Shown: positions 435 through 54,249 of the stretch, piece after piece
Layout of the letters: the number at the start of each line of letters is the position of its first letter
Position numbering within the stretch: position 1 is the stretch's first letter
NCBI GenBank assembly: GCA_028286615.1
Contig: JAQBRG010000004.1
Span: 111,867-175,866 of the forward strand
Length of the DNA stretch: 64,000 nt
Direction: 5' to 3'
Source of the DNA: Parcubacteria group bacterium
GTDB lineage: Bacteria > Patescibacteriota > Minisyncoccia > Phycocordibacterales > Phycocordibacteraceae
The notes under the pieces: generated by a model
Databases searched by the model: none
What the model saw: the letters and a program-made list of their open reading frames with translations, nothing else
Told to the model about the DNA's origin: nothing
Position numbers and translations under genes: made by a program

Positions 435-2209
435 ATCCCGTGAAGAACCCCTCTCGCATTGAGTTGGTTGATTTCGAGTCTGTAAAGGACATTCTTAAAA
501 ATGTTTCTGCAGATAATTCTGGATACCACTCTATTCCTACAGGTAATGTAAAAGCTCTAGAAGCTTTTCTCCTCAAGAAGAAGGGAAACATAACCAGAGT
601 AGAGTATGCGAAAGGGGAAGATGTAGTGCAAAAAGGAGTCGTTACTTTTAAGTCTTTGAAGAACAACACAGAGTTCTCCTATGCGCAGGTGCCGCTCGGC
701 ATCGTCCTAAAAGGAAGTCTCGTTGTTCTTAAGAACGGAAGAGGAACAAAGACTCTTTCAGAGGGGGACTTTCTAGGCCTCTTTGAAACAAGTGATTGGT
801 TGCTTACAAAACATACGCGTCACATAGGGGATTGGACGCTCGTAGCAGATACCGATACGAAAGTAGCGTTCTTCGACAAGAGCCTTCTTTCTGAAAGTAA
901 CCCAGAGGCAGAAGGTTTTAGGGACTATCTAATAGAGCTAGCTCGGGCAGATCACGTCCCGCAGCCTATTAGCACGTTGCCGCTTCTAGATTGGATCGCT
1001 GCACACACTACGCGCAAACGCCTGGATGATTGCGCTGTAGTAGTTCATACACACCTATTACCAAATAGTTTCCCTTTCTTTCGTCACCTCGCTCACTTGG
1101 TTGGTCCCGGTCGTATCTTTATCTTAGAGAAACCGTACTCAACTATTCGTTCAGTCTTCAATGATCTGGTGAGGTCTGGATATGACGTGACGCAGGTTCG
1201 TATGGAGCAAGATATGCCCTACGAGTTTGCTACACAGAAGAGTACAGAGATCTTATGGCGAAAGGTTGTTCAACTTCAGAAGAAACAAGGCTTCAAGAAA
1301 ATACTTGTAGTAGATGATGGAGGAGATCTGTGGCTGTCTATTCCATGGCAAGAGCTTAATGGAGTGGAGATAGTGGGCGTTGAACAAACTCAACGGGGCA
1401 TAGCTCGTATAGAAGGCGGAGGTGTAAGGACTCCACCCATAGTGAGTGTTGCGTCTTCAGGGATAAAGAAGTTAGTTGAATCTGAATTCATAGGCATCTC
1501 GGTTGTTAAAAAACTGAAGGAAGTCGGGGCCCTTGATGCTGCAAAGCAAATAGGAATACTTGGCGTGGGTAGCATAGGCGCTGCTGTAGAACGAGCGCTT
1601 GTCGCTGAAGGACGCACGGTTATTTGTTATGACCCTGCGTATCACTCGTCTACTTTGAAGCCAGGTAATGCCATCAGTTCAATAGACGTTCTTTTGAATA
1701 AGAGCGATCTCATTATCGGAACTGTCGGCGATGATTCCGTAATCGGCACAGCGTTAGAGCGTGTTTCAGGAGATAAGGTTTTTGCAAGCGCATCGTCAGC
1801 AGACATAGAGTTCGGATCGCTACTCAAGCTTGCAGAACCCTCGTTGGATATCTTTGGTACAAGGACAGTGCAGGTACATAAAGACTTTCGTATACAGATC
1901 CTAAACGGAGGTTACCCAATCAACTTTGACCGCATAAAGGACTCAACTCCCGACGAAGATATCGTTCTAACACGCTGCCTCCTCTACATAGGAGCTATGC
2001 AGGCCGCACATCTTCTTTCAGAACATATACAGAAGCCTGGACTCTATGATCTAGACAAGGTCTCGCAGCAACATCTCCTAAAGCGTTGGATTGAATATAA
2101 ACGCCAGCTTGGACAGAAACATCACGTGAAAGACGAAGATGTGGCTAAGATTCTCGCATATAGTTCGCTAAAGGACGCCATGAGGACACCTAGTGTCTGG
2201 GAGGAGTAG
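410..2209 (+). CDS. 599-aa protein with an N-terminal cNMP-binding-like region and a C-terminal adenosylhomocysteinase-like Rossmann NAD-binding domain
   Basis: Long ORF in the right orientation. It carries VVDDGGD and GVGSIG (GxGxxG) motifs, and an SDLIIGTVG...SADIEF segment resembling the AdoHcyase NAD domain. The N-terminal GDFLGLFE...TLVADTDTKVAFFDK segment is weakly similar to cNMP-binding proteins. Confidence 0.5.
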   Translation: MFLQDSCINPVKNPSRIELVDFESVKDILKNVSADNSGYHSIPTGNVKALEAFLLKKKGNITRVEYAKGEDVVQKGVVTFKSLKNNTEFSYAQVPLGIVLKGSLVVLKNGRGTKTLSEGDFLGLFETSDWLLTKHTRHIGDWTLVADTDTKVAFFDKSLLSESNPEAEGFRDYLIELARADHVPQPISTLPLLDWIAAHTTRKRLDDCAVVVHTHLLPNSFPFFRHLAHLVGPGRIFILEKPYSTIRSVFNDLVRSGYDVTQVRMEQDMPYEFATQKSTEILWRKVVQLQKKQGFKKILVVDDGGDLWLSIPWQELNGVEIVGVEQTQRGIARIEGGGVRTPPIVSVASSGIKKLVESEFIGISVVKKLKEVGALDAAKQIGILGVGSIGAAVERALVAEGRTVICYDPAYHSSTLKPGNAISSIDVLLNKSDLIIGTVGDDSVIGTALERVSGDKVFASASSADIEFGSLLKLAEPSLDIFGTRTVQVHKDFRIQILNGGYPINFDRIKDSTPDEDIVLTRCLLYIGAMQAAHLLSEHIQKPGLYDLDKVSQQHLLKRWIEYKRQLGQKHHVKDEDVAKILAYSSLKDAMRTPSVWEE

Positions 2210-10936: not shown

Positions 10937-11458
10937 TTAACTCTTCTTGTCGGTGTAGAGCTGGCAGGCGCGTGTAAACGCTTCTTCTGCATCAGCTTTT
11001 CCCTTGAAGTCTCCAAGAGATACTTCCTTCCCCTGAAGCTGTTTATAGGTTGAGAAGAAGTGCGCGATTTCTTTAAGCTGATGCTTGTTGAGATCGGCCA
11101 GATCTTTGATGTCTGCGAAACGAGGATCGTCAGCAGGAACAGCAATTATCTTTTCGTCTGCCTCGCCGCCATCAACCATGGGGAGAATGGCAACAGGACG
11201 AGCACGTACGAGGATGCCTGGGATAAGAGGGTAGGTAGTGAGTACTACTACATCAAGCGCATCGCCATCATCCCAAAGTGTCTGCGGTACGAAACCGTAG
11301 TCGAAAGGATAATCCTGCGCGCTGTGCATCACGCGATCAAGCGCAATGAGCCCAGTCTCTTTATCAATCTCATACTTATTCTTAGAACCTTTAGGAATCT
11401 CGATGATTACGTTCATCTCTTCCTTCGAACCTGGGTGAATGTCGTGAAGAAGGTTCAT
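10937..11458 (-). CDS. ppa: Inorganic pyrophosphatase (family I)
   Basis: The segments DYPFDYGFVPQT, DGDALDVVVL and GEADEKIIAV are typical of family I PPase. Confidence 0.9.
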   Translation of the reverse strand: MNLLHDIHPGSKEEMNVIIEIPKGSKNKYEIDKETGLIALDRVMHSAQDYPFDYGFVPQTLWDDGDALDVVVLTTYPLIPGILVRARPVAILPMVDGGEADEKIIAVPADDPRFADIKDLADLNKHQLKEIAHFFSTYKQLQGKEVSLGDFKGKADAEEAFTRACQLYTDKKS

Positions 11459-11463
11459 GCGGG

Positions 11464-12885
11464 TTACGCGTTATCGCTAATAGTTTCAGAAGACTCGTCG
11501 CGTGCCTCTTCAGCATCGCTAACTGAACCGTTGTCGGTCATCTTGGTCTCTTCCTCCATAGTAAGGGATGAGCCAGACGGATCTTCTTCTGTAACAACAG
11601 ATTCGGTCTCAGTTGGATCGATTCCTGCAGCAACTGCTGGGTCCATGTCTTCAGTACTGTCGGCTTCTGCAACTGATTCGTCTGAGGCTCCAGCTGGAGT
11701 TTCAGAAACCGTTACGCCTTCGCCATTAGATTCGGCAACGCTTTTGCCGCCAACTGATTCGATGTCAATGTTCCAGCCCGTGAGCTTGGCTGCAAGACGA
11801 ACGTTCTGCCCTCCGCGACCAATAGCGAGAGACTGCTGGTCTTCGGTAACAGTAACGGTTGCGCGATGATTCTCTTCGTCGAGCTTAACTTCAACGATAG
11901 TAGCGGGAGAGAGAGACTCCTTAACGAATGCGGTCTGGTCTTCAGACCATTCGATAATATCGATACGCTCTCCGCCAAGTGCTGCCATAACAGTAGAAAC
12001 ACGAACTCCGCGCTGGCCAACGAGTGAACCAACCGGATCTACGTGCGGATCGTTTGAAGCAATAGCAATCTTGGTGCGGCTACCCGGTTCGCGAGCAATA
12101 CCCTTAACCTCGATGCTTCCTGCAGCAAGTTCAGGCACTTCCATCTCAAAGAGACGAACGAGGAAGCGGGGGTGTGAACGGGAAAGACGGAGGTATACGC
12201 CACGGAATCCCTCATCAACCGCATAGAGGTATGCGCTAACGCGTTCTCCTGGACGGTATCGCTCTCCTGGAATCTGTTCCTCGTAAGGAATGATGCCGGT
12301 TGCGCGTCCGAGGTCGAGGAATATAGAACCGCGTTCAACGCGCTGGACGATACCCGTAACAACCTCGCCCTTCTTGTGGCCGAATTCGTCGAGGATAGAA
12401 AGCTTTTCAGCTTCGCGTATCTTCTGGATAACAACCTGCTTTGCAGTCTGTGCTGCAATGCGACCGAAGTCGTCCTGTGGCTCAAGAGGGAAGATCATCT
12501 CTTCTCCAACCTCAATACCACGCTTGATGCGCTTAGCGTCGTCTATAAGCATGTGCTTTTCAGCGTCAAAGCGAGGGAGCTCGCCTTCAGCAACTACTTC
12601 CTCATGCTCGTGCTGAGGGAAGTGCGGGTGCGGTACTTCTGCTTCCACCTCTCCTTCTTCAGGGAAACGGACCATAGTGTCGTCCACAACAAGCTTTACC
12701 TGCTCGAAAGCTACGGTGCCTGAGTTCATATCAAGCTTGCCGCGAACAACCTGTCCACGCTTTCCGTATTCCTTCTTGTAGGCAGTTGCCATTGCCTGCT
12801 CTATTGCGTCTACCATCACCTCCTTAGAGATGCCGCGCTCCTCGAACTCTCCGAGCACTAGATTTATTGTTTTGAGATCCAACAT
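11464..12885 (-). CDS. nusA: Transcription termination/antitermination factor NusA, with an acidic C-terminal extension
   Basis: The protein has an NusA N-terminal domain, an S1 domain (VVTGIVQRVERGSIFLDLG) and two KH domains (GQRGVRV, IGRGGQNVRLAAKLTGW). Confidence 0.9.
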   Translation of the reverse strand: MLDLKTINLVLGEFEERGISKEVMVDAIEQAMATAYKKEYGKRGQVVRGKLDMNSGTVAFEQVKLVVDDTMVRFPEEGEVEAEVPHPHFPQHEHEEVVAEGELPRFDAEKHMLIDDAKRIKRGIEVGEEMIFPLEPQDDFGRIAAQTAKQVVIQKIREAEKLSILDEFGHKKGEVVTGIVQRVERGSIFLDLGRATGIIPYEEQIPGERYRPGERVSAYLYAVDEGFRGVYLRLSRSHPRFLVRLFEMEVPELAAGSIEVKGIAREPGSRTKIAIASNDPHVDPVGSLVGQRGVRVSTVMAALGGERIDIIEWSEDQTAFVKESLSPATIVEVKLDEENHRATVTVTEDQQSLAIGRGGQNVRLAAKLTGWNIDIESVGGKSVAESNGEGVTVSETPAGASDESVAEADSTEDMDPAVAAGIDPTETESVVTEEDPSGSSLTMEEETKMTDNGSVSDAEEARDESSETISDNA

Positions 12886-12940
12886 ACCTTTCTGTATTTA
12901 ATTGTGCGCACCTTTATATATGTAAGGAAATAGCTTCCTT

Positions 12941-12968
12941 AAAAAGAAAGGTCCGCGGGTGCGGACAT
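12941..12968 (-). terminator. Terminator-like hairpin plus U-tract on the minus strand, immediately upstream of nusA
   Basis: Stem GTCCGC-GGGT-GCGGAC, followed on the minus strand by CTTTCTTTTT. It lies between a promoter-like element and the nusA start. Confidence 0.5.
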
Positions 12969-12982
12969 TTCAGATAGATAAA

Positions 12983-13003
12983 ACATACCATATATAGGTA
13001 TGT
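12983..13003. promoter_or_regulatory. Perfect inverted repeat ACATACC-ATATATA-GGTATGT upstream of the TetR gene (candidate operator)
   Basis: A 7-bp-arm palindrome in an AT-rich spacer, 80 bp upstream of the TetR start. Confidence 0.4.
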
Positions 13004-13082
13004 TGCGTCAATGCGAGGAGGAGAGTAAGGTTGCCGGTAGATAGGGTATTGTCCCACAGTCAATTGAATACAGGAGGACGAC

Positions 13083-13715
13083 ATGGAAGTCGCTCAAGAA
13101 ACAGTCCGTCAGCCTACCGCTCGGGCTATCTCCAAGATGAAAACAAAGGAAGGGGTCTTACGGGCAGCCCGCGAGCTCTTCAGTACGCAGGAATACGAAA
13201 GCGTAACCACTCGAGGTGTCGCCGAAAAAGCCGGCATGAGCACGGGGGCCATGTTCGCAAACTTCGAAAACAAGGCCGACCTGTTTGCTGCCGTTCTCGG
13301 GCAGGCTGTCGAAGAGCGCAGAAAGCTTATCGAAATCTCAATGGAGGAGGCGGAAGATTCTGCGGAGGAAGCACTGCTTGCCATTTTTTCCGCAGCCTAT
13401 ACCTTCCATTACGAGCAACGTACTCTATCGAGTTCTTTGATGGCCGCTTTGTGGATGCGGTATCCTGACGAAGTTTTGGCTCGCGCTACTTCCGAGATGC
13501 GCAAACAAGACAGCTTGTTTATCCATCAGGCTCTTTGGAAGGGTGCGGAGAAGGGGAAATTCCATGCCAAGCTCGCCTTGGACATGGATCTTGTTGCAGA
13601 CACTCTGCACGCACTTCTCTTATCTCAACAGTTTCTGTGTATGGCAGGGCACACCCTAGCAATCCATAAGGTGCACGCTCAGATAAAGTTGGTGCTCGGA
13701 ACATTGAGCAAGTAA
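13083..13715 (+). CDS. TetR/AcrR-family transcriptional regulator
   Basis: The N-terminal HTH GVLRAARELFSTQEYESVTTRGVAEKAGMSTGAMFANFENKADL is TetR-like. GC is high compared with the backbone. Confidence 0.8.
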   Translation: MEVAQETVRQPTARAISKMKTKEGVLRAARELFSTQEYESVTTRGVAEKAGMSTGAMFANFENKADLFAAVLGQAVEERRKLIEISMEEAEDSAEEALLAIFSAAYTFHYEQRTLSSSLMAALWMRYPDEVLARATSEMRKQDSLFIHQALWKGAEKGKFHAKLALDMDLVADTLHALLLSQQFLCMAGHTLAIHKVHAQIKLVLGTLSK

Positions 13716-13740
13716 GACATCTGGCATTAATGTAAGAAAT

Positions 13741-13776
13741 AGGCGCGCTACGAGATACTCGTAGCGCGCCTTTATT
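13741..13776 (+). terminator. Intrinsic terminator after the TetR gene
   Basis: 13-bp stem AGGCGCGCTACGAG-ATAC-TCGTAGCGCGCCT followed by TTTATT. Confidence 0.7.
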
Positions 13777-13894
13777 GACAATATAATTTAATACTGTACT
13801 CTGTCGTCAGTATCTAGCCACGTGGCTTACATCACCTCCACCTGAGGCGATCTACGATCTTTGTAATCGTCTCAAACCCAAAAAGGGAAAGAAA

Positions 13895-14347
13895 ATGAAC
13901 GAACGCATGCTTGGTCTTCCGAACGGCCGCAACCTGAGTAGCGAGCAGCGCGTTCGGCGCTCACTCATCGACCAGCTGCTTCGCTGGGGGATGCTCGGCG
14001 CGGTCGGGGTCTGTCTGGTGTTGATGGTCCACGCCGAATACAGATATCACCACCAACCCCTCCAACATTTGGCCATCAGTCACGATGGAAATCTGATCGA
14101 TGTGCCGGCAGGCCCTTACCAAACTGGCATCTATCGCGCGTTTCAAATCGCCAAAGACGCCAAGCGGCCGGTCTGTTTCGGTGGTGACATCCGTTACTTC
14201 TGCAACAAGGACTACGCACTATTCCAGCATCTCTGGGCCTATCATGACGCAATCTCAGTCAATGTTCCTGTCCGCGCCGGCGAGGAATTCACCCGCGACC
14301 GGCACGGCGTCTGGCACGATGGCCCACCCTCGCGCCTTCCGAAGTAG
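13895..14347 (+). CDS. Hypothetical membrane-anchored protein (island gene)
   Basis: 150 aa with an N-terminal TM helix (GMLGAVGVCLVLMV). Codon usage is high-GC. Confidence 0.5.
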   Translation: MNERMLGLPNGRNLSSEQRVRRSLIDQLLRWGMLGAVGVCLVLMVHAEYRYHHQPLQHLAISHDGNLIDVPAGPYQTGIYRAFQIAKDAKRPVCFGGDIRYFCNKDYALFQHLWAYHDAISVNVPVRAGEEFTRDRHGVWHDGPPSRLPK

Positions 14348-14507
14348 CCACCCGCGGGTCGTGTTTTGAGACGAAGCGCCCACCGAACCTAACTCGGTGG
14401 GCGTCTTCTTATTTACATACCGTGAGATATTTGACAAATACAGTATTTACCCTATAATCTACGCAGCACCATTCACATCCACAAGACTCAATCGAAGGGG
14501 TACGAAT

Positions 14508-15581
14508 ATGAGTTCCTTGAGAGTTAATCGTCGTTTTTTGCTTGCCACTGCACTCGGTTCGACTGCAGTGGTTGTTGGCGGCGCGGCTCTCATGTTGAGA
14601 AACCACGCCCCGACTCTGGAACAACCGAGCGCCAGCTCTGAATACCCGATGGGGAAACTCGCTGGTCGGAACATCGGGAGCCTCTACGCCATCTACATCG
14701 GCTACGAGGGCAAGATCCCGTCCAGACTTAAGATCAACTGGCCGCAACGCATGGAATACATGTGGACCGCTAAGGTCACCAACTCGCATAACAACCGAGT
14801 GGTGCGCCAGACGCGAGACAAGTTGCTGCCTGAGTTTGCGCACGGGGAACCCAAGCGCATGTCGCTCGCCGCCTATCTCAAGGTGGCGGACGGCCAAGCC
14901 GATCTTCTGCATAAGAAGCTCGACTGGGACAAGGTCGGCAGCATGTACTTCACCCGTCAGGGGAAGGTCAACAAGCGCAAGCAACGCCTCCTCAAGAATG
15001 TCGCAGGGCAGGTTCGGGGGAACGAGTTGATCGCCTACGCTCTGACCGAGCTCATGCCCGGTCAGAATGACGGCGCCTTCAACCGCGACTTCCTCGACTT
15101 CCTGCTTCGGCAAGGAGGAAGGGAATTCGTTGAACGCATTCCTGCGCTCTACGACGACCGCACGTCGTTCGGCACCTACCAATTCACCTCGTTCGCTCTC
15201 TACGACGTTCCGGGTGAAAGGCGCGGCGCTTCGAATGTGAACCAGGCGTTGCCTCCGATGTATCGGATTCCCGGGAGCGTGATGCTTCTCCGGGAGAACG
15301 ATCACTTCAAGGCGGCCTATCTGTTCGCCGTGCACAACCTGGCGGTTGCTATCGCCAGACTGGACGACAAGCAGGTGCACACCTTCGAACGCAATCGTCG
15401 GCAGAAGGTGGATTCCATCGTGGAGTTCATCGCCGTCGCGCACCACGGCCCTGCCGCCGCTTACAATGCTTGCGGACGCTGGCTCGACAACAAAGCCAAG
15501 CAACCCTTCAGGAACTCCTGCTCGGGTCGCTATCGCACCTACGCAAACAAGACGGCGAATAACTACAAAGCTTTGGCGTAA
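14508..15581 (+). CDS. Hypothetical secreted protein with a twin-arginine (Tat) signal peptide
   Basis: The start MSSLRVNRRFLLATALGSTAVVVGGAA has an RRFLL Tat motif followed by a hydrophobic region. Weak AYNAC and G-x-Y-Q motifs are reminiscent of lysozyme-like transglycosylases, but this is not established. Confidence 0.55.
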   Translation: MSSLRVNRRFLLATALGSTAVVVGGAALMLRNHAPTLEQPSASSEYPMGKLAGRNIGSLYAIYIGYEGKIPSRLKINWPQRMEYMWTAKVTNSHNNRVVRQTRDKLLPEFAHGEPKRMSLAAYLKVADGQADLLHKKLDWDKVGSMYFTRQGKVNKRKQRLLKNVAGQVRGNELIAYALTELMPGQNDGAFNRDFLDFLLRQGGREFVERIPALYDDRTSFGTYQFTSFALYDVPGERRGASNVNQALPPMYRIPGSVMLLRENDHFKAAYLFAVHNLAVAIARLDDKQVHTFERNRRQKVDSIVEFIAVAHHGPAAAYNACGRWLDNKAKQPFRNSCSGRYRTYANKTANNYKALA

Positions 15582-15597
15582 ATGCCACAAACTAAAA

Positions 15598-15636
15598 ACA
15601 CCCGAGTTGGTCCTGCCAATTCGGGTGTCTTTTTAT
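15598..15636. terminator. Bidirectional intrinsic terminator
   Basis: Hairpin ACACCCGA-...-TCGGGTGT with T-tracts on both strands. Confidence 0.7.
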
Positions 15637-15653
15637 ATACACTAGTCTCTATT

Positions 15654-15944
15654 TCATGCAGCCTCTCTAATTTCCTCCCCTGGAGCGATGGAGTTGAGGA
15701 TTTCAAGCGCTTCTTCTGTAGACTTTCCCTCACACGAAAGTACCTTTTCGGGATCTGCGGCGAATAGCGTACGAAGTTTGTCGTGCGCCTCGTTAGAATC
15801 ATGCGCGCTGATTACGCCGGAAGCGCCTGCATCTTTGAGTAGTACGTAATAAAGAGGATCGCCGCTAGTAAGTCGGACAGACTCGGGGGTGGGTTTAGCC
15901 TCCGAAGAAGGACCTTTAGCAAAGACATTTTCGTGTGAGTTCAT
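15654..15944 (-). CDS. Hypothetical small protein
   Basis: ORF of 96 aa ending at the bidirectional terminator. Low complexity. Confidence 0.3.
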   Translation of the reverse strand: MNSHENVFAKGPSSEAKPTPESVRLTSGDPLYYVLLKDAGASGVISAHDSNEAHDKLRTLFAADPEKVLSCEGKSTEEALEILNSIAPGEEIREAA

Positions 15945-16006
15945 ATATATAAATTGTACTGCATGTTTCCGTGTCTATAAACAGGAGGCAGGAGAGGGTT
16001 ATTGCC

Positions 16007-16034
16007 TTGACGATATGAGTTTTCTTAGTATAGT
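16007..16034 (+). promoter_or_regulatory. Sigma70-like promoter TTGACG-16-TATAGT
   Basis: Good -35 and -10 hexamers about 60 bp upstream of the 16094 ORF. A GAGGAGGG Shine-Dalgarno site precedes the ATG. Confidence 0.5.
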
Positions 16035-16093
16035 TGCGACAGTACCAATAGATTTTTGACTTCAACCTACTGCTCCCTGAGGAGGGCTAACGT

Positions 16094-16882
16094 ATGAACC
16101 GTACGCAATGGACTACCAGGCACGTCGTTATCGGCGTGGTTGGCGCAGGCGCGCTTCTCGTCGCAGGAATCATGCTGTTCGGCCCGAAGGCTTCGGCCAG
16201 GGTCGACGTGGTCGAGGGGATCAAACCCGTCTCCACGCAGATGCTCGGCATCGCCGGCACCATCGACGACATGGCCAAGCTTCCGGTGGCGGAACGTGGC
16301 GCCTATCTCGAGCGCAACTGGCCGCATCTCTCGGAGGACATGGTTTTCTTCCTCCAGCGGCGCGGCAAGATCGCTCCGGGTGTCGAACCCACGAAGGTCG
16401 AGTTCTACTTCGGCTCGATGGACAAGGTGCTCGCCGAGAATGGCGACGGCGGCCGGCAACGTGGCTACTTCGCGAACCAACTGGTCGCCGTGGTGACAGT
16501 TCCGGGCCAAAAGGATCCCATCAAGGTCCTGGTCCAATGCACCAACGGCACCTTCGCGCTCGTCGAAGACCTGCGCAAGCTGCAGGCCGTCGGCGAGCAC
16601 ACTCCGCAAATGCGCTTCACTCTGGGCGCAGGCGAGGGGTTCACGCGTCACCTCGACTACCCGGCGGCGATCCAGCTCGCTCAAGATCTGGGCAAGCCGC
16701 TCTTCCGCACCGGGCGTATGACTCCGGAGAACCGGATCACTCCGGATCAAGCGCGGGCCCTCGAGAGCAGCCTGGACTGGGTGCAGGTTACCGTCGGCAA
16801 CGTCTTCCAAGGCGACAAGGTCGACCTGATCGCCGGCACCTACACTCCGGTCAACGGCCAGGTGATCCGCTTCCATCACTAA
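16094..16882 (+). CDS. Hypothetical membrane-anchored protein (island gene)
   Basis: 262 aa with an N-terminal TM helix (VVIGVVGAGALLVAGIMLF) and a strong Shine-Dalgarno site. GC is very high (about 67 % in a 60-nt sample). Confidence 0.55.
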   Translation: MNRTQWTTRHVVIGVVGAGALLVAGIMLFGPKASARVDVVEGIKPVSTQMLGIAGTIDDMAKLPVAERGAYLERNWPHLSEDMVFFLQRRGKIAPGVEPTKVEFYFGSMDKVLAENGDGGRQRGYFANQLVAVVTVPGQKDPIKVLVQCTNGTFALVEDLRKLQAVGEHTPQMRFTLGAGEGFTRHLDYPAAIQLAQDLGKPLFRTGRMTPENRITPDQARALESSLDWVQVTVGNVFQGDKVDLIAGTYTPVNGQVIRFHH

Positions 16883-16912
16883 GCTTCAAGACCTCGATTT
16901 TTTCGAGGCAAC

Positions 16913-16947
16913 GCTCGTCGATTCATTTCGATGAGCGTTTTTCTTTT
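16913..16947 (+). terminator. Intrinsic terminator at the right edge of the high-GC island
   Basis: 9-bp stem (with one G-U pair) GCTCGTCGA-TTCATT-TCGATGAGC followed by GTTTTTCTTTT. Confidence 0.65.
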
Positions 16948-17014
16948 CCCCGCACACACAAATACGCGCACATGCCTTTGGTACGCGCGCGTTATACTTT
17001 GAATAAACAACGGC

Positions 17015-18766
17015 ATGCAAGTATCTGAAAGCGAACTAAAAGAATTCATTCTCGATTCGGGACTCGTGTCTCGAAAGGATGTTGAAGATGCCGATGACGA
17101 GGCAAAGAAAAAGAAACAGTCTATTGGAGACATTCTTGTATCTCGCGGTACTCTTTCTCCTGACGCGCTCAGGCGTATTAAGGCATACGTGCTCGGTATT
17201 CCTTTCGTTAACCTGAAGGACAAGAAGATTCCTCTAGATGTTCTTTCCCTTATCCCTGAACCAATTGCTCGCACGCACAGTATCGTTGCGTTTAAGAAGG
17301 AAGGAGACAATCTTGAGGTTGCCATGCTTGATACCGAAGATCTTCCGGCTATAGACTCGGTACGAAAGACTACAGGACTTAAGATCCTTGCTCGCCTGAC
17401 GGATGACGAATCTCTCAAACACATTCTTCTTCAGTACCAGAAGTCTCTCAAGGAAGAATTTGGAGACCTCATAACAACAGAAGCAGGGAAGATTAACGTT
17501 ATCAAAGACGAAGAAGGGCAGGAGATTTCAGGAGACGATCTTAAGAAGATGGCAGAAGACCTGCCAATTGTGCGTATTGTTGATACGTTGCTGCGCCACG
17601 CCATTATCCAGAAGGCTTCCGACATTCATGTGGAGCATATGGAGAACGAGGTGTTGGTTCGCTACCGCATAGACGGTGTGCTACATGACGCCATGACTCT
17701 GCCACGCTCTGCAGCCGCCGGTATAACCGCACGTATAAAGGTGCTCGCGAACCTGAAGCTCGACGAGAAGCGTCTTCCGCAGGATGGACGATTCAAGATG
17801 GAGACTGAAGCCGACAAGGTCTCATTCCGTGTATCGCTTCTCCCAACCTATTACGGAGAGAAGATCGTTATGCGTCTCCTTCGCGAAACAGGAGAGGGCT
17901 TTACGCTTGATGTCCTTGGCTTCCATGGAAGTTCTCTTGAGCGCATACACCAGTCCATGAAGCAGACGACGGGTATTCTTCTCATCTCAGGACCTACTGG
18001 TTCCGGAAAGACCACAACGCTCTACACCATTCTCGATATTCTTAATACGCCCGACGTTAACATTTCAACGGTTGAAGATCCTATCGAGTACCAGATGAAG
18101 CGCGTTAACCAAACACAGGTTAATCCTGCTATTGGTTTTACATTCGCTAACGGTCTCCGTGCACTCCTTCGCCAGGACCCGAACATCATCATGGTTGGAG
18201 AGATTCGAGATAGCGAGACCGCATCGCTCGCTATTAACGCTGCTCTTACGGGACACCTCGTGCTCTCAACTATTCACACCAACTCAGCAGCCGGTGCTAT
18301 TCCTCGCCTTATGGATATGGGTGTTGAACCGTTCCTTCTCGTCTCAACCCTTCGTATGGTTATGGGACAGCGCCTTGTGCGCAGACTTTGCGATGGACAT
18401 GAGGAATATACGCTTGATAAGACAGAGCGTTCCAAGGTAGCGAGTGAAGATAAGTTTGAAGCAGCTCTTGCAGCTCTTGCTGAAGAGAAGCTTGTTAAGG
18501 CCGGAACAAAGCTAGACAATCTTCCTTTCCATAAAGCGATGCCTTCTGCTGAGTGTGAAGACGGATACGCAGGACGTATTGGTATCCATGAGATTCTTAC
18601 CGTTTCTCCTGCTATTCGCGACCTTATTCTGCACAACGCTCCACCGGATGCTATTGAAGCGCAGGCTCGCAAAGAGAATATGCTTACAATGCTTGAAGAC
18701 GGTATTTATAAAGCATCACGTGGCATTACAAGTCTTGAAGAGGTGTTGAGGGCAGTTTCGGAATAA
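17015..18766 (+). CDS. pilB: Type IV pilus assembly ATPase (GspE/PilB family)
   Basis: Walker A motif LISGPTGSGKTTTLYT, a GspE N-terminal domain, an Asp box, Walker B, and the tetracysteine-like region CDGHEEY...C. Confidence 0.9.
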   Translation: MQVSESELKEFILDSGLVSRKDVEDADDEAKKKKQSIGDILVSRGTLSPDALRRIKAYVLGIPFVNLKDKKIPLDVLSLIPEPIARTHSIVAFKKEGDNLEVAMLDTEDLPAIDSVRKTTGLKILARLTDDESLKHILLQYQKSLKEEFGDLITTEAGKINVIKDEEGQEISGDDLKKMAEDLPIVRIVDTLLRHAIIQKASDIHVEHMENEVLVRYRIDGVLHDAMTLPRSAAAGITARIKVLANLKLDEKRLPQDGRFKMETEADKVSFRVSLLPTYYGEKIVMRLLRETGEGFTLDVLGFHGSSLERIHQSMKQTTGILLISGPTGSGKTTTLYTILDILNTPDVNISTVEDPIEYQMKRVNQTQVNPAIGFTFANGLRALLRQDPNIIMVGEIRDSETASLAINAALTGHLVLSTIHTNSAAGAIPRLMDMGVEPFLLVSTLRMVMGQRLVRRLCDGHEEYTLDKTERSKVASEDKFEAALAALAEEKLVKAGTKLDNLPFHKAMPSAECEDGYAGRIGIHEILTVSPAIRDLILHNAPPDAIEAQARKENMLTMLEDGIYKASRGITSLEEVLRAVSE

Positions 18767-39377: not shown

Positions 39378-39893
39378 TTACTGCTCTTCGGGGTTTGCGT
39401 CCATGCCGGCTAGGGCGCGGATGAGGTCGAGGATCTTGTGACGGACTCGACCGCGCCTGATCTTCGGGAAGACCGTGGCGATCTCCAGGCCTTCGGCGGT
39501 CATCAGGAAATCGTGGACGGCGCGATCGTCGCTGGCGGGCGCGAGCTCGACGATGCCGAGCAGCGGATCGGCCAGACCTTCGAAGAAGTAGGAGATCGGG
39601 GCCTGGAGGGCCTGAGCGATCTGATACAGCTTGGAGGCGCTGACGCGGTTGGCGCCACGTTCGTACTTCTGGACCTGCTGGAACGTCAGCTCCAGAGCGT
39701 CGGCCAGGTGTTCCTGGCTGACGCCCAGGATTTTGCGGCGCATGCGGATGCGGGCGCCGACGTGCAGGTCGACCGGATTGGGCTGATGGCTGGCGTCATT
39801 CGCCGCGTGGGCTGCAGAGCCCATGGGCTTCCGGGCGTTGTTGGATGATGGCACTTTGTTGTCCTCCTGGACGGTACTGTTGAAACAGCCCAT
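39378..39893 (-). CDS. XRE-family (Cro/cI-type HTH) transcriptional regulator; high-GC foreign gene
   Basis: HTH ILGVSQEHLADALELTFQQVQKYERGANRVSASKLYQIAQAL. GC is about 62 % in a 60-nt sample. The promoter TTGACA-17-TAATGT abuts the ATG, suggesting a leaderless mRNA. Confidence 0.7.
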   Translation of the reverse strand: MGCFNSTVQEDNKVPSSNNARKPMGSAAHAANDASHQPNPVDLHVGARIRMRRKILGVSQEHLADALELTFQQVQKYERGANRVSASKLYQIAQALQAPISYFFEGLADPLLGIVELAPASDDRAVHDFLMTAEGLEIATVFPKIRRGRVRHKILDLIRALAGMDANPEEQ

Positions 39894-52864: not shown

Positions 52865-53479
52865 ATGAAATTCATCCTCGCTCGCAAAGTTCGCATGACC
52901 CAAGTCTTCGAAGAAGATGGTCGTGTGTTTGCTGGTACCGTTCTAAAGACTGGTCCAGTTGAGGTAACTCAGGTAAAGACTATGGAAACTGACGGCTATG
53001 AGGCTGTTCAGGTTGGTTTCGGCGAGCAGAAAGCAGCTCGTCGTAGCAAGGCCGTTCTTGGACACACCAAGGGCAAAGCTTTCCAGGTCTTGAAGGAGTT
53101 CCGCGGCGAAGTAGGAGATCTTGCTCTTGGTGCTGAGATCACTCCTGACGTATTTGCTGCAGGAGACGCGGTTACAGTATCAGGCGTTTCTAAGGGAAAG
53201 GGCTTTGCGGGCGTGGTTAAGCGCCATGGTTTCCATGGAGGACGCCGCTCGCACGGTCAGAAGCACTCGGAGCGTGAAGCAGGTTCTATCGGTGGAGGCC
53301 CAGGCCGCGCTGGAGGACGTGTTTCTAAGGGCATTCGCATGGCCGGCCGCATGGGCACGGACCGCGTAACGGTGACGAATCTTCGGGTTCTTCGTGTCGA
53401 TACCGCACGTGGCGAAATCATCATCTCAGGCGCAGTGCCAGGAGCTCCTGGAACACTCGTTGAGGTTCGTGCACAGTAA
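52865..53479 (+). CDS. rplC: 50S ribosomal protein L3
   Basis: GVSKGKGFAGVVKRHGF...GGPGRAGGRVSKG is an L3 signature. Confidence 0.9.
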   Translation: MKFILARKVRMTQVFEEDGRVFAGTVLKTGPVEVTQVKTMETDGYEAVQVGFGEQKAARRSKAVLGHTKGKAFQVLKEFRGEVGDLALGAEITPDVFAAGDAVTVSGVSKGKGFAGVVKRHGFHGGRRSHGQKHSEREAGSIGGGPGRAGGRVSKGIRMAGRMGTDRVTVTNLRVLRVDTARGEIIISGAVPGAPGTLVEVRAQ

Positions 53480-53490
53480 TTTTCGTACTT

Positions 53491-54249
53491 ATGGCAACCG
53501 CAAAGAAAACAGTCGCAAAGAAAGCAGCACCTAAGAAGGTGGCAGCTACTCCTGTAGCCGCAAAGACTCTTGGCAACATGGAGGCATCTGTTTGGAACAT
53601 GGCAGGTACTTCAACAGGAACAATCACACTTCCTGAAGAACTCTTCGGTGTTCGTTGGAACGCAGACCTCGTACACCAGGTGGTAATTGGTATGCAAGCT
53701 AACGCTCGCCCAACAACTGCACACACGAAGTTCCGTGGAGAAGTAGCAGGAGGAGGAAAGAAGCCTTGGAAGCAGAAGGGTACAGGACGTGCTCGTCACG
53801 GTTCTACTCGCTCTCCAATCTGGAAGGGTGGAGGTGTAACGCACGGTCCACGCGCTGAAAAGGACTACACCGTTAAGATCAACCGCAAGATGCGCGCTGC
53901 TGCTCTTGCTGCTGTTCTCTCACGCAAGTTCAAGCACGGCGAGATCATCTTCGTAGACTCTCTTTCAATTGCTGCACCTAAGACTGCACAGGCTCGCACC
54001 GCGCTTATCGCAATTGCTAAGGCATCAGGACAGGCAATGCTCGCAACCAAGCGCAAGAACGCAGCCGTTGTGGCATTCGCAAAGAAGGATGCAATGAGCG
54101 AGAAGTCTTTCCGCAACATCAACAGCCTTACGCTCGACGAAGTTCGTAACCTCAACGCTGCAGACCTCGTAACAAAGAAGTACCTTGTTATCGAGAACCC
54201 AGCAGAGGCACTCCCAGTTCTAACAGCCCGCTTCGGCAAGAAGGCATAA
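53491..54249 (+). CDS. rplD: 50S ribosomal protein L4, with an Ala/Lys-rich N-terminal extension
   Basis: KKPWKQKGTGRARHGSTRSPIWKGGGVTHGPR is an L4 signature. Confidence 0.9.
   Translation: MATAKKTVAKKAAPKKVAATPVAAKTLGNMEASVWNMAGTSTGTITLPEELFGVRWNADLVHQVVIGMQANARPTTAHTKFRGEVAGGGKKPWKQKGTGRARHGSTRSPIWKGGGVTHGPRAEKDYTVKINRKMRAAALAAVLSRKFKHGEIIFVDSLSIAAPKTAQARTALIAIAKASGQAMLATKRKNAAVVAFAKKDAMSEKSFRNINSLTLDEVRNLNAADLVTKKYLVIENPAEALPVLTARFGKKA

Follow-up and report, generated by a model that had tools for sequence, protein, structure and literature searches.

Five genes lie between nusA and pilB in a Parcubacteria group bacterium, and part of this interval is markedly richer in guanine plus cytosine (GC) than its surroundings. 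We analysed the locus within a 64-kb stretch of contig JAQBRG010000004.1 (hereafter the window), where a preliminary description had placed an inserted high-GC island of roughly 4 kb at positions 12941-17014. We consider it rather probable that the nusA-pilB interval is a lineage-conserved variable slot for genes of exported envelope proteins, not a single recent island, and that one occupant, a 357-amino-acid (aa) protein designated p357, resembles glycoside hydrolase family 23 (GH23) enzymes and probably cuts peptidoglycan. The p357 gene would have occupied the slot since before the species concerned diverged, or would have been repeatedly replaced there. The cargo may come from high-GC members of the same lineage, or be traded with them, in which case no mobile element or distant donor would be needed.

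Homologues, by the names they carry, assign the window to a metagenome-assembled genome of the Parcubacteria/Paceibacterota. Relatives were gathered via NusA and via homologues of the slot genes. Throughout this family of Paceibacterota, which belongs to the candidate phyla radiation (CPR), nusA and pilB are divergent neighbours. The gap between them measures 150 bp in L017, 375 bp in L018, 437 bp in L014, 757 bp in L015, 1166 bp in L009, 1390 bp in L020, 1445 bp in L024, 1587 bp in L016, 1960 bp in L002, and 4130 bp in the window. Relatives with gaps of only 150-437 bp bear out the earlier idea that genes do become inserted at this site; the empty slot was found only in more distant relatives (L014, L017, and L018). 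The cargo of the relatives consists mostly of predicted exported or surface proteins, including a CsgG-like/SH3 protein with a signal-peptide-like start (L016), an RTX-repeat protein (L020), a small secreted-looking open reading frame (ORF) (L015), and a 172-aa lipoprotein-like ORF with a GC content at third codon positions (GC3) of 0.78 (L128). L002 carries a weakly HIT-like protein beside a p357 orthologue, and L024 an ORF that, as read from its sequence and not from a domain scan, resembles a histidine kinase.

Orthologues of p357 occupy the same slot in three other species and are 56-62% identical to the window copy. They have a GC3 of 0.74 in L002 (NusA 77% identical to that of the window; host GC about 60%), 0.77 in L127 (NusA 82%; host GC about 53%; flanks about 0.56), and 0.70 in L128 (NusA 85%; host GC about 53%; flanks about 0.51). 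The preliminary description had read the stretch as an insertion into this genome, and had named homologues at that position in relatives, of like composition, as the observation that would speak against this. Because such syntenic orthologues exist, and are equally GC-rich in the mid-GC hosts L127 and L128, p357 was not recently inserted into this genome alone. An orthologue of p262, a second slot protein, is 57% identical and sits in the slot of L009/L010, a host with 60% GC. Thus the absence from the same site in close relatives that marks a genomic island is not seen for p357 (L127, L128, and L002) or for p262 (L009). No counterpart of the remaining three genes, tetR, p150, and as96, was found in any relative's slot. 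Profile searches of all fetched loci, which address the co-occurrence of the gene set, found no contig other than that of the window with both the p357 and the p262 family.

A separate observation concerns the other side of nusA. In L128 the pyrophosphatase gene adjoining nusA (830-1417, minus strand) is about 40% identical to the window copy, versus 73-80% in L127 and L002. Given this low identity in the genome with the closest NusA (85%), the gene seems to have been replaced in L128.

Both edges of the slot are conserved. On the nusA side TTGCGTCAAT is followed by TACCATATATAGG and then by a GC hairpin. The two sequence elements recur upstream of nusA in L002, L009, L016, L127, and L128, all of which lack a TetR gene there. 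On the pilB side TTTTCTTTTCCCC is followed by TATACT, a −10-like hexamer; the former is clearest in L009, L020, and L127, and the latter was found in L002, L014, L015, L016, and L020. These edges delimit the variable part to approximately 13013-16936, which would place it between back-to-back apparent promoters of nusA and pilB.

The edges have features of their own. A GC hairpin, GTCCGCACCCGCGGAC, with a T-run lies at 12951-12966 (minus strand), where it separates the nusA start from its apparent promoter. Related hairpins are conserved in L002, L009, L014, L015, L016, L020, and L128; none was seen in L017 or L018, and in L127 the position lies outside the stretch read. A possible role is attenuation in the leader, through which NusA would regulate its own synthesis, as has been described for Bacillus subtilis. 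Upstream of pilB, the window (16937-17014) and L002, L009, L014, L015, L016, L020, and L127 share TTTTCTTTTCCCC, often a GC-rich palindrome, and, some 12-20 nt ahead of the start codon, TATACT; this spacing suggests a very short pilB leader.

The stretch at 12941-17014 has 54.9% GC, versus 49.0% for the remaining window (window mean, 49.4%). Across the 64 kb, 800-bp or 1000-bp intervals that exceed the mean by more than 2.5 standard deviations occur only within it, and the profile peaks at 63% near 16100-16900. The hand counts of the preliminary description were exact (66.7% at 16141-16200 and 41.7% at 17101-17160), and the sliding-window profile that it proposed shows the discontinuity that it expected. 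Its 4-kb high-GC island stands in that the stretch is GC-rich overall; it does not stand as a uniform block, since the excess is patchy and confined to three of the five genes, the only ones with the deviating composition expected of a genomic island. The excess is concentrated in the third codon positions of p150 (13895-14347; GC3 0.70, z = +2.6), p357 (14508-15581; GC3 0.74, z = +3.3), and p262 (16094-16882; GC3 0.82, z = +4.3, the highest among the slot genes), measured against about 70 other ORFs of the window (0.503 ± 0.073). First and second codon positions of these genes have ordinary composition. The tetR gene (GC3 0.58), as96 (GC3 0.44), and every spacer (40-48% GC) are backbone-like.

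Relative synonymous codon usage links the three genes to GC-rich members of the lineage. It correlates with that of core genes of the high-GC relatives L002, L009, and L016 at r = 0.84-0.85, and with that of the window's own backbone at r = 0.12. From this match to high-GC relatives that carry the same slot genes, together with a GC excess that is nearly all synonymous, we infer exchange within the lineage. Across 24 loci, genes of the p357 family track host GC in low-GC hosts and stand 9-14 points above their flanks in several mid-GC hosts. A universally high GC content of the family was considered and rejected, as the gene follows its host in genomes of 30-40% GC. Homologues of p262 follow this pattern too; the one in L012 has 64.5% GC in a contig of 46.8%. 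The window copy of p357 is about equidistant from the other slot copies, and those of L127 and L128 are 70% identical to each other.

Elsewhere in the window we identified a second lone GC-rich gene (39378-39893, minus strand; 64% GC, GC3 0.83, z = +4.5). It encodes a 171-aa XRE-family helix-turn-helix (HTH) regulator (PF01381, E = 1.7e-10), and its codon usage, too, is close to that of high-GC relatives (r about 0.64-0.71). Single GC-rich genes are therefore found outside the nusA-pilB slot as well. At 53101-53500 the 300-bp GC content exceeds the mean by more than 2.5 standard deviations; this rise is probably due to amino acid composition, since the overlapping ORF (52865-53479) has an ordinary GC3 (0.47). 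Two ORFs that overlap p262 in other frames, 16067-16879 (minus strand, 270 aa) and 16108-17028 (plus strand, 306 aa), were rejected as by-products of high GC and the resulting scarcity of stop codons. GC3 in these frames is ordinary or low (plus frame, 0.43), and neither is supported as a gene.

All five ORFs listed in the preliminary description exist, and an independent gene caller also predicted each of them on a Logan contig (SRR13312974). This independent assembly is identical to the window (0 mismatches over 9190 bp) and spans both junctions. There is no tRNA in the whole window, and only chance-level short matches where flanking direct repeats might lie. Pfam and NCBIfam revealed no recombinase domain in the five slot proteins. 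The earlier statements that tRNAs, flanking repeats, and mobility genes are lacking thus hold, as do two others: the products are predicted to be exported or membrane-anchored, and, TetR apart, none has a recognisable domain. Only TetR matched a Pfam or NCBIfam family; p150, p357, as96, and p262 had no match in Pfam, NCBIfam, or PHROGs. An Rfam search of 12700-17200 returned only a spurious match to a long noncoding RNA (E = 0.65). The neighbours on one side are the type IV pilus genes pilB and pilC.

Potential control elements divide the slot into separate units. Terminator-like hairpins follow tetR (13741-13771, with a perfect 14-bp stem) and p150 (14376-14404, plus strand). Upstream of p357 is a perfect consensus promoter sequence (14431-14458, plus strand; TTGACA, 16 nt, TATAAT), and the ATG at 14508 is preceded by a GAAGGGG ribosome-binding site. 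The convergent p357 and as96 share a hairpin (15594-15632) with T-runs on both strands, as in a bidirectional terminator. A promoter-like site precedes as96 on the minus strand (15981-15953), and another precedes p262 (16007-16034, plus strand; TTGACG, 16 nt, TATAGT). The T-run of the terminator-like hairpin after p262 (16910-16939, plus strand) continues into the conserved pilB upstream element TTTTCTTTTCCCC. With p357 and p262 bracketed by such sites, the five genes appear to be transcribed separately, which suggests a collection of tenants and not an operon or module.

The p357 gene lies at 14508-15581 (plus strand). Besides p357 itself we identified 36 homologues, unnamed or annotated as hypothetical; the few named sources are Patescibacteria, and further homologues were found in metagenomes. 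An AlphaFold2 model based on an alignment of 37 sequences is confident (predicted local distance difference test score, 91.2) and has the lysozyme-like alpha+beta catalytic fold that characterizes GH23/SLT proteins. Twelve residues are invariant in 46 of 46 sequences (K89, E181, L200, G204, P212, D216, S220, G222, Q225, H312, P315, and Y345), a set that includes homologues from AT-rich hosts only 22-26% identical by tblastn. In the model E181 ends the helix formed by residues 171-182, and the residue that follows it is L or I, not S. The motif order TE181LMP, SFGTYQ225FT, AHH-GP315, and TY345ANKT parallels QES, GLMQ, AYNAGP, and GY..K of Slt70, as judged by eye and with no statistic attached. 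The preliminary description had suspected a lysozyme-like fold in this protein from weak AYNAC and G-x-Y-Q motifs. The predicted fold agrees with this, and G-x-Y-Q is invariant and corresponds to motif II; AYNAC is not conserved in the family and is a coincidence.

Export of p357 is suggested by its N-terminus, VNRRFLLATALGSTAVVVGGAAL, in which NRRFLL precedes a hydrophobic stretch. This is a twin-arginine-type signal or anchor, as previously proposed on the basis of the motif. Among the 37 family members, 17 have a twin-arginine motif, 4 have a lipobox-like motif, and 3 match Pfam TAT_signal weakly. We propose that p357 is exported, held on the outer side of the membrane, and cleaves peptidoglycan glycan strands. 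E181 would serve as the general acid, and D216, S220, G222, Q225, H312, and Y345 would line the cleft. The enzyme could act on the wall of its own cell, either to remodel it or to let the neighbouring type IV pilus through, or else on that of a host. Numerous surface proteins are encoded by Patescibacteria, among them exported lytic transglycosylases proposed to compromise host envelopes (PMC11665869). Distant p357 homologues are found in unrelated housekeeping contexts, for example beside genes for EF-G and Dus, so a dedicated pilus role is unsupported by conserved linkage.

The closest likeness is to family-1 lytic transglycosylases of GH23 (SLT, PF01464), such as MltE/EmtA, MltC, and Slt70 of Escherichia coli and the phage proteins phiKZ gp144 and phi6 P5. 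The predicted fold is that of GH23, and the invariant E181, with which a helix of the model terminates, may correspond to the catalytic Glu of these enzymes; four motifs follow one another as they do in Slt70 (by eye), and predicted export or membrane tethering is shared with the Mlt lipoproteins. Yet p357 has no detectable sequence similarity to these enzymes. Its family reads TE(L/I)xP where they have ES, SFG(P/T)(Y/F)QFT in place of GLMQ, and A(H)HxP in place of AYNAG, so the GLMQ and AYNAG motifs themselves are missing. Glu and Gln are separated by 44 residues in p357 versus 18 in Slt70. Unlike GH23 proteins, p357 also has the additional invariant Asp216 and a helical N-terminal region of about 130 residues, and all of its homologues found come from metagenomes. 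Goose-type lysozymes, GH19 chitinase, GH124, and the type VI secretion muramidase Tse3 scored lower against p357 than lytic transglycosylases did, likewise with no sequence similarity. We therefore describe p357, with moderate confidence based on the predicted fold, as a candidate new and divergent family of the lysozyme/GH23 superfamily with its own motif set.

Several results weigh against this assignment and against the evolutionary scenario. No SLT or lysozyme family (PF01464) was matched by any of the 37 members in Pfam at E ≤ 10, hhalign of the p357 alignment against E. coli Slt70 gave no match (probability 0.4%), and a profile search of PDB sequences with p357 returned nothing. The proposed catalytic residues are assigned by conservation and fold, not by residue-level superposition, and with D216 invariant, p357 may be a hydrolytic muramidase rather than a transglycosylase. 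As for the slot, p357 orthologues only 56-70% identical all hold a GC3 of 0.70-0.77, which ancient transfer followed by amelioration does not predict. Distances between p357 proteins do not follow NusA distances; this fits replacement, and also unequal evolutionary rates.

Further observations bear on the wider p357 family. No relative was found in viral contigs. Three members (P0024, P0027, and P0035) have a C-terminal LysM-like extension of about 100-150 aa, with a lone Pfam LysM match (E = 0.13). Beside one homologue (P0018), L005 encodes a 245-aa secreted protein (11342-12079, plus strand) with the pattern 'SVHPRGMAVDIRV...HFHLVV' and no Pfam match, which we take to resemble LAS/M15-type cell wall metallopeptidases. 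Should this hold, the p357 homologue would have another wall enzyme as its neighbour.

The second slot family is that of p262 (16094-16882, plus strand), a protein of 262 aa whose N-terminus forms a hydrophobic helix, with ASA behind it. On inspection by eye this suggests a signal peptide or anchor, and p262 would be a second exported protein, from an uncharacterised family. A word-index search revealed only two homologues, and an exhaustive profile search revealed 145 cluster representatives of about 250 aa. The structural model is confident, but no known fold matches it with confidence. A search of BFVD folds with p262 returned nothing, as did a profile search of PDB sequences with the family alignment, and Pfam gave nothing meaningful over 81 members. 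The profile also matches stand-alone proteins of about 130-150 aa (among P0137-P0186), only at positions 170-250, so that the C-terminal third seems to be a domain in its own right, and a mobile one. In L125, a gene (1206-2198, plus strand) located two genes upstream of P0042, a p262 homologue, encodes a 330-aa protein with a LysM-like stretch, FYRVRRGDTVSRI, and the SLT-like strings MQEAGG and AAFYNGKYW. It has no Pfam match, and hhalign against the p357 alignment pairs only the LysM-like stretch with the extension columns.

The remaining two hypothetical genes are without known kin. The p150 gene (13895-14347, plus strand) encodes 150 aa with one N-terminal hydrophobic segment (residues 28-46). 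It is an orphan, with only self-hits among 5.8 billion proteins, and NCBI lists it as a hypothetical protein from a Parcubacteria metagenome-assembled genome. The as96 ORF (15654-15944, minus strand; 96 aa) has no homologue or domain that we could find; the gene caller predicts it, and its status as a real gene is uncertain. Previously listed as an antisense ORF, it in fact overlaps no gene. It lies alone in a 512-bp spacer, convergent with p357.

The tetR gene (13083-13715, plus strand) encodes a 210-aa regulator with an N-terminal HTH (PF00440 TetR_N, E = 1.6e-13, 50.6 bits versus a cutoff of 24). It scores below the cutoff of each NCBIfam equivalog and thus belongs to no defined subfamily. 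A perfect 8-7-8 palindrome, AACATACC-ATATATA-GGTATGTT, at 12982-13004 had been suggested as its operator. As in typical TetR-family repressors, the HTH is N-terminal and the length is about 210 aa; unlike them, this regulator has no divergent target gene except nusA. The palindrome lies 79 bp before the tetR start. Its left arm and AT core coincide with a minus-strand promoter-like site ahead of nusA (TTGACG, 18 nt, TGG-TATGTT), and the right arm alone is particular to this window. No second copy occurs in the window, even with three mismatches allowed. The palindrome mostly coincides with an apparent nusA promoter conserved in relatives without TetR; a TetR operator may overlap the nusA promoter, but nothing requires one. 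The proposal of a TetR-regulated module is likewise unsupported, given the separate promoter-like and terminator-like sites, the absence of a tetR homologue from every relative's slot examined, and the co-occurrence of p357 and p262 only here. We regard TetR as an unrelated later tenant of the slot.

How the cargo came to be GC-rich can be explained in other ways. A single recent horizontal gain of a foreign 4-kb island, forming one TetR-regulated secreted or surface module, would account for the sharp GC contrast with the flanks, the empty slots of some relatives, and the presence of the five genes together in this genome only. We consider it improbable; the GC-rich orthologues in the equivalent position in L127 and L128, the relatives nearest to the window (NusA 82-85%), already go far to refute it. 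Backbone-like composition of TetR, as96, and all spacers also argues against it, as do the separate control sites of p357 and p262, the lack of TetR in every relative's slot, the overlap of the palindrome with the apparent nusA promoter, and the lack of an integrase, tRNA, or flanking repeat. A binning or assembly artefact that joined high-GC DNA to a mid-GC contig might be suspected in a metagenome-assembled genome with so abrupt a change in composition, and has next to no chance of being correct. Misassembly is rejected on the identical independent contig, the junctions bear the conserved nusA and pilB upstream elements, and the same arrangement is found in L127 and L128. Nor do p357 and p262 appear to be a toxin-immunity pair, in which a peptidoglycan-degrading effector would be countered by a membrane-anchored immunity protein or inhibitor. 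This is very improbable given that the two families meet only in this window, that no p357-family ORF lies within 8 kb of p262-family loci L125 and L126 (the two checked), and that over 30 p357 loci lack a p262 relative in the DNA examined. Here the two genes are separated by the 512-bp spacer and a convergent ORF and have their own promoter-like sites.

The main rival to the variable slot with exchanged cargo is vertical inheritance combined with a gene-specific force, and we judge it somewhat unlikely. Ancestral slot genes would have kept a high, actively maintained synonymous GC content while the backbone drifted lower, through GC-biased gene conversion at a recombination hot spot or through selection on codon usage or mRNA structure of genes for exported proteins. 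The persistence of a GC3 near 0.74 in divergent p357 orthologues, whatever the host (GC3 0.49-0.80), leaves room for such a locus-specific force. Consistent with it, other slot cargo is GC-rich too (p150 and the 172-aa ORF of L128), and p357 and p262 homologues stand 9-18 GC points above their flanks in unrelated mid-GC contexts (L005, L008, L012, L097, L103, and L117). On the other hand, the p357 family tracks GC in low-GC hosts and so is under no universal constraint, as96 and TetR are not GC-rich in the same slot, and the incongruent p357 and NusA distances favour exchange. A bolder combination of ideas can be put forward only tentatively: p357 would represent a new Patescibacteria-restricted glycan-cleaving family, GH23-like in fold and with a catalytic motif set of its own (TE-L-x-P / SFGxYQFT / AHHxP / YxxKT), that serves at the cell surface in pilus passage or host-wall breach, and the slot would be a recombination hot spot whose cargo stays GC-rich in different species because alleles are repeatedly imported from high-GC relatives or because gene conversion is GC-biased. 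If true, it would offer a rare, directly observable case of locus-specific maintenance of composition in ultrasmall bacteria.

As a variable slot, the locus resembles replacement loci such as those for capsule and O-antigen, and integration hot spots. Its flanks (nusA, pilB, and their upstream elements) are conserved, and its cargo varies between related species and consists of compositionally deviant surface or exported proteins. Unlike those loci it is tiny (0-4 kb), holds single unrelated genes instead of a pathway, has no recombinase or repeats, and includes one gene, p357, that is common to four species.

These results amount to a useful annotation and an evolutionary observation; they define no new kind of system and do not overturn current understanding. 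The slot is a compact variable locus flanked by core genes, with cargo that retains a foreign-looking synonymous composition from one species to the next, and it serves as a warning that a GC-rich patch need not mean a recent insertion. The p262 proteins add a second family, of about 145 clusters, with a confident model and no confident match to a known fold. Attachment to other microbes is the way of life of CPR bacteria, or Patescibacteria, and little is known of how their own walls are remodelled or those of their hosts breached. In this context p357 represents some 40 or more exported proteins of one family that escape current profile libraries, and its predicted fold and invariant residues make peptidoglycan cleavage directly testable.

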